Sequence record: NC_041936.1
DNA: 64,000 nt
Direction: 5' to 3' (one strand)
DNA from: Escherichia phage ECD7
The position numbers were made by a program, and so were the translations under genes. Position 1 is the stretch's first letter; each line of letters starts with the position of its first letter. This document shows, one piece after another, positions 11,001 through 60,484 of this stretch. The notes beneath the pieces were generated by a model. The model searched no databases. It saw only the letters and a list, made by a program, of their open reading frames with translations, and was not told the origin of the DNA.

Positions 11001-11174
11001 GAATTGTTCCACGGACTTAAAGCAAGCGAACGAAGATTTGCAATGAGTCCACTGTTTGACCAGTCGGCGGTAACATTCTCTATGTTCCGTGAACTTGTAG
11101 ATAAACGGTTGAAGGATAATATAGGGAATCCACGCGATCCGAAGAATCCGACACAGAGGAAAATTAATGGCTAA
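8088..11174 (+). CDS. 7: baseplate wedge protein gp7
   Basis: 1028 aa (T4 gp7 ~1032 aa), synteny. Confidence 0.85.
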   Translation: MIKAPSVTSLTIEKLSANQAYITWDDVGENFFYFVELAETRTRDGEIIPVDELSWVNLGYTADQNWFEDKNLFPEYYYKFRVAVAAEGFEQSKWVETEEFQTFKTNAYNFSMMREFNLANEFIKEKFTYDNREYVKFNTDLIQASLMKEDFVFSPEYANMTNISNYIVVDENFHEIQDHIEKVCTDINRTMLAEMNGVLYLFERFQPIVKVSNDKGQSWKAYKAFNDRVGNPVSRTCVYQSKTTTYVLGYDRIFYGRQASDTRWSADDVRFSDDTITFAKVGDENDLGFDVEVFGVFSRLTGDTTKYAEAMACSDDYLWVGAKDVIRRIRLKNTPVDTVQGSPTFGEKIFDPDVIRVTGNDKAVIQKMDVIDGKLLVFVTGEVKQRYQDPTKPENVVPSDDAGVYLIGSDGLSFQRVFGNTPQEREYIQHGFSNMSTNGDEVFISHYNHHFESILPDPETAAKYELGEAVKYSQEPTYLTDKKIHQTTFRASYDDLRIWELGPQAYYNEADYTWMRRNGVRVWITNDNRPLVVYPEVVYTQEVDTSGILDQNRVNREVYDKGTVTCYLNNVKFEGFKQYASGVMFHKNTGEIIGFYQFNYRVRDQVGVYWKPTNVAFVAELQNQVREVPWVPVHYDREQDPDLRPLLNKMTPDSFLLENENFRKFSEYYLQFLSDGSGTYYNKLKNLIKNKYPREKDAYEYLWSEMNKRNIYADKNKRDAVVRFFESRKSDFYSTKGVEASYKFLFKLLYNEDVEIEVESQAGLEYDIVVSSTNIDEDIVGRTIYTPTGRANVTYLEREYEGGRLRWRVTIHNLIGRFEEGQVIKSEKTAFEGMILVGVRGKELLSSSIDYINRSRSQYTMKIKSALPVSRYANDVMRFVHPVGFGFIGVTLLTMFINSGLSMKHTETIIQSLKNYKFDSGLPSVYPDRVADLDVDGNIKKDPLTGKALYLTSPLIGEEFPVPPEYDQENSELFHGLKASERRFAMSPLFDQSAVTFSMFRELVDKRLKDNIGNPRDPKNPTQRKING

Positions 11175-12162
11175 TGAAAATAGTGTGATCTATCGCTCAA
11201 TCATTACTAGTAAATTCAGAACGGAAAAACTTCTGAATTTCTATAATTCTGTAGGCGATGAGGCAAATCAAATTACAATTTATGGAACGTTTGGACGTTC
11301 GGAGCCGTGGTCAGAAAACGAAAAAGAGGTGGGCTTTGCCCCACCTTATCCGACCGATTCAACGGCTGGTGTTGTTGACATGTGGACCCATATGATGGGG
11401 GCGGTTAAGATTAACAAATCACTTCTTGATGCGGTTATCCCTCGTAAAGATTGGGGTGATACCGGACAGGATAACCCGCGCACATTCTTTATCAATGACA
11501 TTGTTGTTGTCAACTCAGCACCATATAACAGAACTGATGTTGGTAGCGGCTGGATGGTGTATCGCGTAACCGATGTTCCTGATCGCGGTTACTGCTCGAT
11601 TTCAAGCATTGACGCTAAAGTGGAGTGTTTGAAGTTGGGCGGAAAGTGGACCCCCACTCATGAATCAATTGCGCCACCTGTAGGAAAGGGCGATTCTATT
11701 GATATGGGTGATGGGTATCGTTGGGAATATCTGTACACAATTCCACCTGATGCGGCGATCAACCGTTGCACCAATGAACATATTGTTGTACCGTTCCCCG
11801 ATGAACTGCGACAAGATCCGGCGCGTTGGGGTTATGACAATGTGATCACCTGGTATAATGACTATAATCTGCTTTATCGGCTGAAAGTAGTAACTTTGCG
11901 TTTTCAGGCTTATATGGACTCTGCGCAATTCCCAACTACCGCGTTAGTGGGTAATACTGGTTTCCGTCAGTTAAGCATTATCCTTAACCCATTGGAAAAG
12001 AAAGCACGCCCTAGCGATCCAGACGTTAAAGCGGTCAAAGATAAGTACCGACCGCAAGACTTAGAGCCACACTCAGGCGAAATGATCTACATGGAAAACC
12101 GACAACCTATCGTTCGGTCATTAGATCAAACAGAACTTGTTTCTGTATTGTTTGAGTTCTAA
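11167..12162 (+). CDS. 8: baseplate wedge protein gp8
   Basis: 331 aa, synteny. Confidence 0.85.
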   Translation: MANENSVIYRSIITSKFRTEKLLNFYNSVGDEANQITIYGTFGRSEPWSENEKEVGFAPPYPTDSTAGVVDMWTHMMGAVKINKSLLDAVIPRKDWGDTGQDNPRTFFINDIVVVNSAPYNRTDVGSGWMVYRVTDVPDRGYCSISSIDAKVECLKLGGKWTPTHESIAPPVGKGDSIDMGDGYRWEYLYTIPPDAAINRCTNEHIVVPFPDELRQDPARWGYDNVITWYNDYNLLYRLKVVTLRFQAYMDSAQFPTTALVGNTGFRQLSIILNPLEKKARPSDPDVKAVKDKYRPQDLEPHSGEMIYMENRQPIVRSLDQTELVSVLFEF

Positions 12163-12173
12163 GTGTATGATTT

Positions 12174-12202
12174 AAAAGCCAATTCGAGAGAGTTGGCTTT
12201 TT
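12174..12202 (+). terminator. rho-independent terminator after gene 8
   Basis: Stem aaaagccaa/ttggctttt with 10-nt loop followed by T-run. Confidence 0.6.
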
Positions 12203-12214
12203 CTATTTTGGGTG

Positions 12215-12242
12215 TTGACAATCTTGTCTGATAAGGTATAAT
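12215..12242 (+). promoter_or_regulatory. sigma70-type promoter (TTGACA, 16-nt spacer, TATAAT) for the three-gene insert
   Basis: -35 TTGACA 12215..12220, -10 TATAAT 12237..12242, GAGGA SD 12261..12265, ATG 12272. Confidence 0.65.
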
Positions 12243-12271
12243 GATCACATCTAAACAACGGAGGATAAATT

Positions 12272-12529
12272 ATGGCACGTCGTAAATTTACAGATAATTG
12301 TGAAGCAATTCAGGTATCCCCTTGCGGTTGGGATGTGATCGCGAACGGTGAAAAGATCGGAGAGATCATCGATCATACTCATTCATCACTAGCCGATTAC
12401 ACCGATGAACTATTGGAGGGTATCAACTTCATGAATGACACTAAACGATTCAAGACTATCGACGAAGCTATCTATTTTGTGTATAATCCAACTTTCGGTA
12501 TGTGGGGTAATAGAAAATGGCACGCGTAA
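12272..12529 (+). CDS. hypothetical protein (85 aa), first gene of insert
   Basis: ORF with SD; overlaps next gene by 13 nt. Confidence 0.55.
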   Translation: MARRKFTDNCEAIQVSPCGWDVIANGEKIGEIIDHTHSSLADYTDELLEGINFMNDTKRFKTIDEAIYFVYNPTFGMWGNRKWHA

Positions 12530-12849
12530 ATATTAAATTGCATTACACAATGAATAAAGCTAAGTTCCCAATGCAAAAGCATTACTATGGTCTACGTGCA
12601 CAAGATCCTAAACTCTATGGTACTCATTGGTTTTGTAAACATGATAACCAATGGCACACATACGAAGAAATGCACGAGATGATGAAACAGGGTATTGAAT
12701 TTAGTTATTCTAATTATGACCATCGTATAACTTGCATTCGAAAATTGAAACGATGGATTCGTAAGAATCCGCAATTTAAAAACTTTGTGTTCTTTATGTC
12801 TCATGTTTATTTGGGACATAGCGTTACCGTCACAGCAAAGGTTAAATAA
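12517..12849 (+). CDS. hypothetical His/Trp-rich protein (110 aa), second gene of insert
   Basis: ORF; stop overlaps next start (TAATG). Confidence 0.55.
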   Translation: MARVNIKLHYTMNKAKFPMQKHYYGLRAQDPKLYGTHWFCKHDNQWHTYEEMHEMMKQGIEFSYSNYDHRITCIRKLKRWIRKNPQFKNFVFFMSHVYLGHSVTVTAKVK

Positions 12850-13688
12850 TGGCACGACTTTCTAAACAAGAACAAAAATTACACGATCGGGTGATGGAGT
12901 TGATTAATTCAGATCGCCCATTGACATATGAAGAAAAAGAATTTTGCTATAATAACTATCATGGCGATGGTCTAGGCGGTTCAGGTGCATTCTTTACCCC
13001 AGAAGGGCTTGCATGGGATTTTACCATCGATGCACATTGCACAGGAAAAGTATTAGATCTTTGTGCTGGGATCGGTCGCTTATCTTTTTGTATGTTACAT
13101 CGTTGTAAGCCAGAAAAGATCGTATGCGTCGAACTCAATCCAGAATTTGCGCGGATTGGCAAGAGACTATTACCGGAGGCAGAATGGATCACCAGCGATG
13201 TATTCGAATTTGAGTCAAACGAAAAATTCGATGTGGTGATCAGCAATCCACCTTTCGGGAAAATCAATACAACCAACACAAAGGATGTATTTGAGTACAC
13301 TGGCGGCGAATTTGAATTTAAGGTTATGACATTAGGCCAGAAGTTTGCCGATGTTGGCTATTTTATTGTTCCTGTGGGTTCCGCTGGTTTTGCTTATTCC
13401 GGCAGACCTTATTATGACGGGACCATGAAGTCTAATAAATATCTAAAATGGAGCAAACAAACTGGTTTGGTGACTTATGCCGGATGTGGTATCGATACAT
13501 CAATCTATCGCGATGAATGGCACAGTACCAACGTTTTAACAGAAGTGGTTGAGGTTCGGTATTACGAGAAAGAAGCCGTAGAAGCGCCTAAATCACGCCC
13601 TAACGAACAAATAGAAGAAAGTAAGGAGATTACCTTACCGAAACAGGAAAGCGAGTCTGGGACGCTCTCAGATTTGTTTGACATTTAA
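12849..13688 (+). CDS. SAM-dependent N6-adenine DNA methyltransferase, gamma-class motif order
   Basis: Motif X-like GAFFTPEG, motif I DLCAGIG, motif IV NPPF in that order; 279 aa. Confidence 0.7.
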   Translation: MARLSKQEQKLHDRVMELINSDRPLTYEEKEFCYNNYHGDGLGGSGAFFTPEGLAWDFTIDAHCTGKVLDLCAGIGRLSFCMLHRCKPEKIVCVELNPEFARIGKRLLPEAEWITSDVFEFESNEKFDVVISNPPFGKINTTNTKDVFEYTGGEFEFKVMTLGQKFADVGYFIVPVGSAGFAYSGRPYYDGTMKSNKYLKWSKQTGLVTYAGCGIDTSIYRDEWHSTNVLTEVVEVRYYEKEAVEAPKSRPNEQIEESKEITLPKQESESGTLSDLFDI

Positions 13689-13693
13689 TTATA

Positions 13694-13718
13694 AGCCGTC
13701 CTCGTGGGCGGCTTTTTT
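13694..13718 (+). terminator. rho-independent terminator after methyltransferase gene
   Basis: Stem agccgtcc/gggcggct (one G.U) with tcgt loop and T6 run. Confidence 0.6.
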
Positions 13719-13728
13719 GTATGTATTT

Positions 13729-13736
13729 TATAAATA
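13729..13736 (+). promoter_or_regulatory. T4-type late promoter TATAAATA upstream of gene 9
   Basis: Exact TATAAATA 28 nt upstream of ATG 13764. Confidence 0.55.
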
Positions 13737-13763: not shown

Positions 13764-14618
13764 ATGGCACAAGTTCCAAAGAAAAGAATAGACACAGGTA
13801 CTGTCGGCAATCCATCGACTGGCGATATCTTATATGATGGCGGTAATAAAATTAACGATAACTTTGATTCAATATATGACGCATTTGCTGATCAGCGGTT
13901 TAAAGACGTAGACCACGGCGTGGGAAGAATGGTTATTCATGCAACCGGATACTATCAGAAGCATCCACGTCAAAGCTACGCTGGTTCCGCTGTTGAGATT
14001 GGGAGTCTACACGATATCGATACAACTCAAGGCGCACTTATTGCTATTCTACCTAAAGCGAAGGTTGGTGAGGGTGTTGTATTCATAAATAGTAACGGTA
14101 GCCTTTCAACGACGACACCGCTCAATATTCGAACTCAAGCAGGTGATTCTATTAGCGGGTATTCCGGTGATGCTACAATAACACAACCATTTTCAAAAGT
14201 CACTGTTTGGTGTACTGCCGTTGAAGGTAGTCGCGTAACATGGCGATTGGGTATCGAAAGTATGTTTACCGATACAACAACGCCATTAGATAAAACAGTT
14301 AACGTAACTGGAGTAGCAACAAACGTTGCTATTGCCGCAAAAACAGAATACGTTTCCATCAAATTATTAACTACCGCTAGCAATACATCCGGTTCAAAAA
14401 TGCGTTCAAGTGAAACGCTACTAATGATTGATTCTAAAGCCGGAAAAGTTTATGCGACGGAATATGCAGTTTTGCAGAAGACAGAAGATGAACTATACAC
14501 GGTTCGTTATTTCATCGGTTCCGGCGATAAAGTATATGCAGAGTATAAGGCTACTGGCGAAAATATTCGTTTAGCAGTTAAAGCCGTAGACACTATTAAA
14601 ATCGGGGTTGCTACATGA
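13764..14618 (+). CDS. 9: baseplate wedge / long tail fiber socket protein gp9
   Basis: 284 aa; N-terminus similar to gp10 N-terminus; synteny. Confidence 0.85.
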   Translation: MAQVPKKRIDTGTVGNPSTGDILYDGGNKINDNFDSIYDAFADQRFKDVDHGVGRMVIHATGYYQKHPRQSYAGSAVEIGSLHDIDTTQGALIAILPKAKVGEGVVFINSNGSLSTTTPLNIRTQAGDSISGYSGDATITQPFSKVTVWCTAVEGSRVTWRLGIESMFTDTTTPLDKTVNVTGVATNVAIAAKTEYVSIKLLTTASNTSGSKMRSSETLLMIDSKAGKVYATEYAVLQKTEDELYTVRYFIGSGDKVYAEYKATGENIRLAVKAVDTIKIGVAT

Positions 14619-54820: not shown

Positions 54821-54849
54821 ATTATAGGGGATCACCGATCCCTTGTCAA
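54821..54849 (-). promoter_or_regulatory. promoter-leader cassette copy a (TTGACA, 17-nt spacer ggggatcggtgatcccc-like, TATAAT)
   Basis: Minus-strand -35 at 54844..54849, -10 at 54821..54826. Confidence 0.6.
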
Positions 54850-54857
54850 CAACTTTT

Positions 54858-55376
54858 TTAGTTATTTTTTAATTGCTCATCTTGCAATAGGGCAATCACA
54901 TGCTGGCGATGTTCTTCCGATTGAGGCACACCGAAAAAGTTTGTTTTGTAGAAATACTCTAATCGGTCTTCTCGTGTGCTCTCTTCCATCATGATCGCGG
55001 GTAGTCCGAGATTTCGGAAACGTCGCTTTTCTGCTGGCGTAAAATCACTGTAATACAGCATATAATCATCATTACCAGCAATGCTAAACTCATCCTTCAT
55101 GAAAGAGAATATTGCGTTTAAACGCTGTTTACCGTCCACGATTTCGATTTCATAGCGAGAGCCATCATCAATCTTAGCCATTGCGATAGCACCAACCGGA
55201 AAATCATTAATCAGGTTTTCGATAAACATACGTTTGTTTTCTGTGTCCCATACCAAAGGACGCTGATAATCTGGGTTCATGTTGATATAGCCATCTTCTA
55301 ACCATGCTTCGTAAACAGAGATGACAAAGTTTTTAGTATTGGTATAGTAACGGCGTTTAGGCGTTAAACGGTTCAT
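54858..55376 (-). CDS. DUF262/ParB-like nuclease-superfamily protein (172 aa from ATG 55376)
   Basis: Motifs DYQRPLVW and IVDGKQRLNAI; start has GGAG SD and abuts upstream stop. Confidence 0.55.
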   Translation of the reverse strand: MNRLTPKRRYYTNTKNFVISVYEAWLEDGYINMNPDYQRPLVWDTENKRMFIENLINDFPVGAIAMAKIDDGSRYEIEIVDGKQRLNAIFSFMKDEFSIAGNDDYMLYYSDFTPAEKRRFRNLGLPAIMMEESTREDRLEYFYKTNFFGVPQSEEHRQHVIALLQDEQLKNN

Positions 55377-55377
55377 A

Positions 55378-55707
55378 TTATAGTCTCCTGAATGGATCAT
55401 CACGTAAATCAATATCTTTTAAGAACTCATCCCATGAATGGCGGATATTGTTCTTAATTCTCCAGATAAGCGCAGGGATTGAACGCTCTCCCATCTGGAA
55501 GTAAGGATCATATGATCCGTATGCCCAATATGCTACTACAATTCCACAATCAGCGCAATAGTATTCTATTTCACTTGCTGGCGACCAAAGTCCATCAATA
55601 TGATCAGTGATCTTGCTTTCGATGTTATGGCTATGACAATCAGGGCAACGGATGCAATGACCTTGTTTATCGTAATTTGACGTTAGAGAATACTTAAACA
55701 ATCTCAT
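55378..55707 (-). CDS. small zinc-ribbon protein (109 aa)
   Basis: CIRCPDCH ... CADCG Cys pairs. Confidence 0.55.
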   Translation of the reverse strand: MRLFKYSLTSNYDKQGHCIRCPDCHSHNIESKITDHIDGLWSPASEIEYYCADCGIVVAYWAYGSYDPYFQMGERSIPALIWRIKNNIRHSWDEFLKDIDLRDDPFRRL

Positions 55708-56423
55708 TATAGATCCTTATTGGCTTCAAATACTGCCTTTGCGAATCCTCGCGGCGTAAGTGACCTGATAGTCTTTGTTCTGGTTCCTTTCCCGCCTAGC
55801 TTAGAATGCTGTTTGCTGTACCCTTTATTAATCTGCAACGGTTTCTTTTCTGGCATTATAAAGCCTTGTCCGGTCCATAAGCAAGTCTTTTTCGGGTACA
55901 TATCACGGGCGGCAATATACTCAGGAAACGTAGGATGCTTATCATCTTCCGGCAAATAACCGCCATATTCCCACGGATGGAACATGTAATCAGGCTTACG
56001 CCACATACTAGAGATAACGCTTACAGGATTCTCTATCATATAGGGAACTCCTAGCCATTCACCCAAATAAGCGGTTATTTTAGCTGCCCGTACATCATGA
56101 ACTTGAATCAATGGTCCTTGTTCTCGTTTCTTTCGTTCAAAGTGTGCAGCGCCACTAACAGCTAAATTGGTGCACGGTGGGAATGCAAATATAATATCCG
56201 GTTTCCCCCATTCAAGGTCCATTGCTCTTTCCAGCCAGTTCAAATCAATCCAGGTGTTTACATAGGTAATGTTTGGATGTTCAAATCTGGTATTATACTT
56301 TTTGTATGTACCGTGGTCGGCGTCATCCGCATTAAAGCAGACTACCTTATGACCTGCTTTAGCCCATTCTAGCCCCATTATCCCCGATCCGTCAAAGTTG
56401 CAGAATATTAATTTTTGTTTCAT
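55707..56423 (-). CDS. C5-cytosine methyltransferase-like protein (238 aa)
   Basis: FDGSGIMG (motif I-like), FAFPPCTNLAVSG (PC motif IV-like), MIENPVS (ENV motif VI-like); shorter than typical C5-MTases. Confidence 0.5.
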   Translation of the reverse strand: MKQKLIFCNFDGSGIMGLEWAKAGHKVVCFNADDADHGTYKKYNTRFEHPNITYVNTWIDLNWLERAMDLEWGKPDIIFAFPPCTNLAVSGAAHFERKKREQGPLIQVHDVRAAKITAYLGEWLGVPYMIENPVSVISSMWRKPDYMFHPWEYGGYLPEDDKHPTFPEYIAARDMYPKKTCLWTGQGFIMPEKKPLQINKGYSKQHSKLGGKGTRTKTIRSLTPRGFAKAVFEANKDL

Positions 56424-60455: not shown

Positions 60456-60484
60456 ATTATAGGGGATCACCGATCCCCTGTCAA
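60456..60484 (-). promoter_or_regulatory. promoter-leader cassette copy h (consensus TTGACA, 17-nt perfect palindrome ggggatcggtgatcccc, TATAAT)
   Basis: -35 at 60479..60484, -10 at 60456..60461; two GATC sites in spacer. Confidence 0.65.

Follow-up and report, generated by a model that had tools for sequence, protein, structure and literature searches.

Gamma-class N6-adenine DNA methyltransferases, among them M.TaqI, the type I HsdM subunits and the Eco57I/MmeI-type enzymes (PF07669, PF02384), carry their conserved motifs in the order X (FFTP), I (xGxG) and IV (NPPF), and T4 Dam is an alpha-class orphan GATC methyltransferase. In T4 and RB69, the DNA polymerase gp43 and the proteins gp33 and gp55 end in a short hydrophobic/acidic motif, located at the extreme C-terminus behind a flexible segment. 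The C-terminal peptide of RB69 gp43 binds a hydrophobic pocket of the gp45 sliding clamp in PDB 1b8h (PMC3012046), gp33 and gp55 bind gp45 via similar C-terminal motifs, and in the eukaryotic Dnmt1-PCNA system a short clamp-binding peptide recruits a DNA methyltransferase to the replication clamp, where new DNA is methylated (PMC9690074). The present work concerns a 64,000-nucleotide (nt) stretch of Escherichia phage ECD7 (NC_041936.1), hereafter the window, and in it a three-gene insert (positions 12174-13718) between baseplate genes 8 and 9, the third gene of which encodes a methyltransferase of 279 amino acids (aa). On balance and with modest confidence, this enzyme is read from its sequence as a clamp-tethered, replication-coupled DNA methyltransferase, carried in an early accessory cassette that is fixed in Krischvirus.

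The enzyme resembled each of these systems in part. It shared with the gamma-class enzymes the motif order, an N-terminal helical segment and a Rossmann core that superposed over 181-226 residues, but differed from them by its small core of about 240 aa, by the lack of a discrete target-recognition domain, specificity subunit or restriction partner, and by its C-terminal clamp-type tail. We know of no gamma-class DNA methyltransferase with such a tail. Like T4 Dam, it would be an orphan adenine methyltransferase encoded by a T4-like phage; however, the Krischvirus homologue of Dam is encoded elsewhere (RB49p063), ends in ...VYVTNVD without a clamp-type tail, and has a different motif order. 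The comparison with Dnmt1-PCNA is an analogy only, since Dnmt1 is a cytosine-C5 maintenance enzyme of an unrelated catalytic class that binds another clamp through an N-terminal PIP box.

The polymerase-like C-terminal tail

The methyltransferase ended in ...ESGTLSDLFDI and the DNA polymerase gp43 of RB49 in ...KVASLTDLFDI, with six of the last seven residues identical. The gp43 proteins of Delraymugoa, the nearest relative of the window, and of Makalu_002, the most divergent Krischvirus match, also ended in SLTDLFDI. The terminal TLSDLFDI-stop of the methyltransferase (13662..13688; this and all cassette features are on the + strand), proposed here as a gp45 sliding-clamp-binding tail from its likeness to the gp43 tail, was invariant across Krischvirus. 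All 1564 stop-to-stop segments of RB49 were scored by how well their last eight residues matched the gp43 tail. The score was 39 for gp43 itself, 32 for the methyltransferase (rank 2 of 1564) and 19 for the next segment over a background of -7.4 ± 6.4, and the methyltransferase tail was thus an outlier by 6 standard deviations in the RB49 proteome. The two tails used different codons for Leu, Asp and Leu, which indicated that the peptide and not the DNA was conserved and that selection acted on the peptide. Recent gene conversion from gp43 was rejected as the source of the tail because of these synonymous differences. The E. coli beta clamp, whose binding motif is QL[SD]LF, was also considered as the target of LSDLF and set aside, as the phage's own gp43 tail was far closer.

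The tail was preceded by a disordered acidic linker of low model confidence and low identity (aa 240-271, 13566..13661). The predicted local distance difference test score (pLDDT) was 41-58 over aa 241-279 and below 50 for aa 261-269 and 271-279, and the net charge of aa 239-279 was -6. Compared with the 68%-identical homologue P0002, identity was 74% in the core, fell to 29% in the linker (aa 239-269) and rose to 90% in the last ten residues. By this comparison, a conserved tail on a drifting linker is what characterises a short linear motif that is functional and flexibly tethered. Two features of the known clamp-binding tails were found together, namely a hydrophobic/acidic motif at the extreme C-terminus that resembles the cognate polymerase, and a flexible linker less conserved than the motif. 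Moreover, the RB49 gp43 tail aligned position by position with ASLFDMFDF, the C-terminus of RB69 gp43. Unlike in gp43, gp33 and gp55, the candidate tail stands on a methyltransferase and not on a polymerase or transcription factor.

In the alignment of the family, the C-terminal extension was present in the copies of lytic T4-like phages and in none of about 100 bacterial or prophage copies; plasmid homologues also had no tail. A second pairing of tails was found in the T4-like Vibrio phage EniLVp02, in which the partner tails were basic (gp43 ...TWTLNKFF, located at 138-141 kb, with no gp43 in the 70-119 kb region; gp33 ...SNLRKWL) and the tail of the family methyltransferase was basic as well (...TTINRWANK). 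Directly after gp43, EniLVp02 encoded a second, unrelated DNA methylase of the beta class (PF01555, 4e-25; L027 3979-4728, PP209424.1 140978-141727), which ended in ...SQSKKWF, similar to the gp43 (TLNKFF) and gp33 (NLRKWL) ends of that phage, and carried a candidate clamp tail of its own. Arg32 of RB69 gp45 contacts acidic groups of the bound tail (PMC3012046), and at the equivalent gp45 position every acidic-tail phage examined had Arg or Lys, and EniLVp02 had Gln. Tails of the methyltransferase in the RB16/KP15 clade were strongly conserved as (S/Q)(D/N)LFTFTIE, ELFTFRIE and GNFTFVIE, and the partner tails were SLN(D/T)LFGD(D)W in gp43, TLD(D/G)FM in gp33 and TLE(M/D)FL in gp55. These patterns led to a broader proposal, to which we give an even chance: that T4-like phages repeatedly put lineage-matched clamp tails on mobile orphan DNA methyltransferases, in at least three lineages and two unrelated enzyme classes. 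Such enzymes would ride on gp45 and act coupled to replication as a viral counterpart of Dnmt1-PCNA, and a compact enzyme without a target-recognition domain would become processive on phage DNA only.

Several of these tail data, together with the substrate data given below, weigh against a clamp-tethered DNA enzyme. The RB16/KP15 methyltransferase tails were clearly unlike those of their own gp43, with only an LF/aromatic core in common. The covariation of the gp45 pocket came from one lineage only, and tail-less copies of the enzyme were found in Aeromonas phage AS-zj (T4-like, Straboviridae), phiM12 and GAP32. The first of these points would suit a free-standing orphan DNA adenine methyltransferase that serves anti-restriction, as put forward in the initial annotation, and whose likeness to gp43 is a non-functional remnant or a coincidence, as would the orphan status of the enzyme, its carriage on mobile elements and the evident ability of tail-less homologues to function alone. 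This alternative is nevertheless considered unlikely in view of the outlier rank of the six shared residues, the retention of the tail over a diverging linker, its invariance in the genus with codons different from those of gp43, and the matched basic tails in the independent EniLVp02 lineage.

Nothing relevant on clamp motifs in phage methyltransferases or on adenine methylation in Krischvirus came out of searches of the literature, whose coverage was limited, and a gp43-like clamp tail on a methyltransferase appears not to have been described before. The cassette as first described was an ordinary, already annotated orphan methyltransferase moron, and it is the polymerase-like tail that changes this picture. 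If the tail binds gp45, a sliding clamp that is among the best studied would have clients of a new class, and a C-terminus resembling the cognate gp43 tail would serve as a sequence rule for finding phage clamp clients. As a side observation from the tail scan, the RB49 DNA ligase gp30 (L014 4127-5623) ended in ...TVKEVFDV and was the third-best match to the gp43 tail, a weak one with a score of 19; an interaction of T4 ligase with gp45 has been reported (PMC6212786).

Catalytic core and substrate of the methyltransferase

The methyltransferase gene occupied 12849-13688 as the third gene of the cassette, and its catalytic core (aa 1-239, 12849..13565) consisted of N-terminal helices followed by motif X GAFFTP (aa 46-51, 12984-13001), motif I DLCAGIG (aa 70-76, 13056-13076) and motif IV NPPF (aa 133-136, 13245-13256). 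In the METHYLTRANSFERASE, these three motifs stood in the gamma-class order X-I-IV, and they were invariant in 26-28 homologues, among which E95 was also invariant and D117 nearly so. The enzyme therefore looks catalytically intact. No cognate endonuclease or specificity gene was found beside it, the neighbours being ORF1, ORF2, gp8 and gp9, and no nuclease partner was found beside its homologues in RB16, KP15 and prophages. The motif set and the orphan state had been claimed in the initial annotation and were both recovered, which supports, at the level of sequence, an orphan amino-methyltransferase with gamma-class motif order. The annotation had gone further and named a gamma-class N6-adenine DNA enzyme. 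Of this, the motif order held, while profiles and folds did not settle DNA as the substrate.

The profile evidence was divided. The best curated match was the generic Pfam family MTS (1e-9, 38.6 bits). Pfam Eco57I lay above its threshold (27.8 bits against 25.3, 3e-6) and Pfam N6_Mtase below it (17.5 bits against 20.4). The best NCBIfam matches were to PrmC, RsmC and models of that kind, which all fell short of their cut-offs by a factor of 5-10, and among the NCBIfam models for DNA methyltransferases none came near its cut-off. The PrmC/HemK model TIGR03534 reached 37.4 bits (cut-off 199.1) and covered only aa 64-137, and the RsmC-type model NF007023 reached 29.3 bits (cut-off 295). The family is labelled 'DNA methyltransferase' in PHROGs (PHROG 3820), and its members bear conflicting names in GenBank, including DNA methyltransferase, release-factor glutamine methyltransferase, 'similar to rRNA guanine-N2 methyltransferase' (the RB49 record) and hypothetical protein. 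Structural matches of the predicted model were gamma-class DNA methyltransferases mixed with METTL5-like RNA enzymes. The model showed a single Rossmann domain up to about aa 238 and a disordered tail after it, and from the model only the short loops at aa 137-155 and 180-195 could contact the target.

The results that belong on the unfavourable side here were the ranking of generic MTS and PrmC/RsmC as the top curated profiles by E-value, the N6_Mtase score, METTL5 and PH1948 among the top fold matches, the absence of a recognisable target-recognition domain after the catalytic domain of the model, and published chemistry. In the DNA of Krischvirus TB34, a phage that has the insert (98.6% nucleotide identity over the query region), high-performance liquid chromatography/mass spectrometry detected no modified nucleosides (PMC13390438). 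Dense, non-specific methylation is disfavoured by this result, and any methylation would be sparse or was not scored. The TB34 study reports cytosine derivatives only, with no mention of adenine or deoxyadenosine (PMC13390438), and a sparse, site-specific N6-methyladenine (m6A) is by our own inference compatible with it.

Going by sequence and fold, an RNA or protein substrate is possible, and an RNA methyltransferase (acting on rRNA, tRNA or mRNA to give m6A or N2-methylguanine, m2G) or a protein glutamine methyltransferase has to be weighed. A gp45-bound tail would then place the enzyme on the clamp-activated late transcription complexes, where it would modify nascent late RNA. This alternative is rated as improbable, and a clamp-tethered RNA methyltransferase on late transcripts in particular as of low probability. 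The models of all those families remained far under their cut-offs, whereas Eco57I exceeded its own. The METTL5/PH1948 and PrmC/RsmC types are without the FFTP-containing N-terminal region, and motif X and the N-terminal helices of the phage enzyme aligned with gamma-class DNA enzymes over more residues. To our knowledge, neither type is typically carried on phages or plasmids. The neighbours of the gene in other phages were DNA replication and repair genes, the cassette was of early and not of late type, and a bona fide DNA methylase in EniLVp02 bore the same kind of tail. The polymerase-like tail itself, which the initial annotation had not noticed, is the strongest argument for DNA as the substrate.

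For the clamp-tethered DNA methyltransferase that we prefer, the following course is proposed. Host sigma70 RNA polymerase would start within 12215-12242 and produce one mRNA for the three overlapping genes, and the hairpins on either side would isolate the cassette from the late gp8 and gp9 transcripts. The payload is an orphan amino-methyltransferase of gamma order, whose family is mobile between phages, the ends of prophages and plasmids. In this phage its compact core, lacking a separate target-recognition domain, has gained a disordered acidic linker of about 30 residues ending in TLSDLFDI. With early transcription the enzyme would be present at the start of replication. The tail of the enzyme would dock on a gp45 subunit that is left free in the trimeric clamp, and the enzyme would travel with the clamp on new phage DNA and methylate adenine at N6 during or just after synthesis. 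The clamp would confine the activity to phage DNA and give a small enzyme the DNA tethering that it lacks. The likely benefit would be protection of progeny DNA from host restriction, and an anti-restriction role, already suggested in the initial annotation, is plausible. If this holds, it would be the first methylation in a bacterial virus that is physically coupled to the replisome, as far as the literature searched shows, and it would explain how an enzyme of about 240 residues could be efficient without a recognition domain. The analysis would also resolve the conflicting database names of the family.

The cassette enzyme is not the only methyltransferase of Krischvirus, which also encodes a Dam of the T4 type and one further gene annotated as a methyltransferase. 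In the window this third gene lay at 55707-56423 (-) as the equivalent of RB49p189, with 238 aa, an FPPC motif and no Pfam match, and a gene with a GmrSD_N/DUF262 domain (6e-20; 54858-55412, -) was located nearby. Cytosines are canonical in TB34 and modified in Krischvirus SAP, and the 55707-56423 gene and its DUF262 neighbour may bear on the cytosine modification of SAP, which is absent in the 99.96%-identical TB34 (PMC13390438).

Anatomy and conservation of the cassette

The insert was flanked by gene 8, encoding a baseplate wedge subunit (11167..12162; Pfam Phage-Gp8, 8e-144), and by gene 9, encoding the baseplate tail-fibre connector (13764..14618; Pfam T4_gp9_10_N, 1e-40), and the surrounding open reading frames (ORFs) of the window corresponded by Pfam to gp7, gp8, gp9 and gp10. 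The initial annotation had described a terminator, a sigma70 promoter, three translationally coupled ORFs, a second terminator and a late promoter between genes that are adjacent in T4. All these elements were found where it had placed them, and T4 genes 8 and 9 are separated by a gap of 63 nt. The gp8 transcript would be ended by an intrinsic-terminator-like hairpin with a T-run (12174..12211, hairpin 12174-12201), which consisted of a 12-bp stem, a 4-nt loop and the tail TCTATTTTGG. The promoter TTGACA-16-TATAAT at 12215..12242 matched the early sigma70 consensus at 12 of 12 positions, and a GGAGGA ribosome-binding site (12260-12265) preceded ORF1 (85 aa, phrog_16603, 12272..12529). ORF1 overlapped ORF2 (110 aa, phrog_12630, 12517..12849) by 13 nt, and ORF2 overlapped the methyltransferase gene through TAATG. 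A second hairpin and T-run (13693..13724, hairpin 13693-13714; 9-bp stem, 6 GC, tail TTTTGTATGT) closed the cassette, and the T4-type late promoter for gene 9, TATAAATA, was read off the sequence at 13729..13736.

The window contained six exact TTGACA-N16-18-TATAAT promoters where 0.07 were expected, and none of 100 shuffles reached six, indicating a genuine early-promoter type of this phage. Looser scans of the window for promoters and terminators showed no enrichment of their own. The GenBank record of GEC-3S (NC_025425) annotates the same layout of terminator, promoter, three coding sequences (CDS) and terminator, and the anatomy is thus real and not new. An insulated early-type cassette within the late baseplate operon is supported by these data.

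About 3.7 kb around the insert were 96-99.8% identical to 57 Krischvirus phage records, including RB49, Phi1, JSE and GEC-3S, with Delraymugoa and MIZ6 as the nearest. At least 80% of this query was covered in 56 of the 57 records, and all 57 sequenced members of this RB49-like genus carried the insert. In the reference sequence of RB49 (L001 2773-3019; NC_005066 73902-74148), ORF1 was broken into two small CDS, RB49p140 and p141. An intact 85-aa ORF1 was present in the resequenced RB49 (OZ035808) and in all other members, and the split is probably a frameshift error of the 2003 sequence.

Two of the perfect sigma70 promoters of the window, at 54821-54849 (-) and 60456-60484 (-), had near-identical spacers, each with the palindrome GGGGATC-GGT-GATCCCC and thereby two GATC (Dam) sites. 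The shared spacer could serve as an operator or make the promoters sensitive to methylation.

Separability of the cassette genes and the nature of ORF1 and ORF2

The methyltransferase family extended far beyond Krischvirus, to hundreds of phage genomes, at least 1,729 sequence clusters of the protein database and 187 plasmid records. At 54-61% identity it occurred in chromosomes of Citrobacter, Enterobacter, Salmonella and Klebsiella, where the copies lay outermost in lambdoid prophages or islands, beside host genes, and at 42-50% identity in many T4-like phages and jumbo phages; it was also carried on plasmids, among them Pseudomonas megaplasmids. In RB16, KP15 and related contigs the gene lay between replication genes 41 and 61.1, with a DUF8046 protein and not ORF1/ORF2 upstream. 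In the metagenomic contigs L017 and L018 from a Krischvirus relative, the methyltransferase was the only gene in the slot between gp8 and gp9, preceded by a terminator and a sigma70 promoter and followed by a second terminator. ORF1 and ORF2 were confined to Krischvirus and some rV5-like coliphages, ORF1 to few of the latter and ORF2 to about 30. In the rV5-like phage FV3 they formed an overlapping pair among early genes, followed by unrelated genes with no methyltransferase nearby.

The occurrence of the methyltransferase apart from ORF1/ORF2 indicates that the cassette is composite and that the pair are not obligate partners of the enzyme. The initial annotation had suggested that the two small proteins regulate the methyltransferase or give it specificity, so that the three genes would form one system. 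Their overlapping starts and stops, the single promoter and terminator and the joint presence of all three genes in 57 of 57 genomes would agree with this. Nevertheless, with the pair standing without the enzyme in FV3-type phages, the enzyme standing alone in the same slot of L017 and L018, the RB16/KP15 enzyme paired with another upstream protein, and ORF2 alleles that swapped independently of neighbouring genes, the suggestion was not borne out and such a system is judged very improbable. A separately mobile, co-inherited pair is supported instead by these comparisons.

ORF1 had a net charge of -4. ORF2 was basic (net charge +12), with 9 His, 3 Trp and 2 Cys, in agreement with its earlier description as His/Trp-rich. 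As claimed before, no function was recognisable for either protein: Pfam and NCBIfam gave no match, PHROGs only families of unknown function, and a word-indexed search only close relatives. An exhaustive HMMER profile search with ORF2 over 1.84 billion representatives returned four proteins, all members or fragments of the same family, and its AlphaFold2 (AF2) model, with a pLDDT of 62, was too poor for a fold search. ORF2 carried an invariant set C40/H42/H47/H69/C73/H96 and a basic helix, and zinc binding is an idea suggested by the invariant Cys and His only. The window segment 12500-12740, covering the N-terminal two-thirds of ORF2, was a divergence island with 52-85% nucleotide identity to RB49 and GEC-3S between flanks that were 97-100% identical, and two ORF2 alleles with about 100% and about 72% amino-acid identity were present in Krischvirus. 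The island fits recombination and allele exchange, an arms race or diversifying selection, and the basic, Cys/His-rich and fast-evolving ORF2 may be a small early protein that binds nucleic acid or a host factor. All three cassette proteins begin with Met-Ala-Arg, as had been noticed before; in FV3, ORF1 starts with MSLRK and ORF2 with MAHVN, and the shared start is therefore treated as incidental.

In the RB16/KP15 clade, a protein of 114-132 aa abutted or overlapped the start of the methyltransferase (L011 2667-3065, L019 6986-7330, L021 9664-10023). Two of the three copies were DUF8046 (PF26219), and the RB16 copy had no Pfam match at E<=0.01. This protein, which is unrelated to ORF1 and ORF2, may accompany the enzyme in this clade specifically; a relationship between ORF2 and the DUF8046 protein was considered and rejected, as ORF2 had no Pfam match and the RB16 protein none at that threshold. 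The paper on KP15 and KP27 names only Dam and Dcm and misses the methyltransferase gene. In contig L017, a gene with a TnsA-like endonuclease domain (PF08722; 228-710) was found between genes 2 and 53, which is probably an insertion of the homing-endonuclease type.

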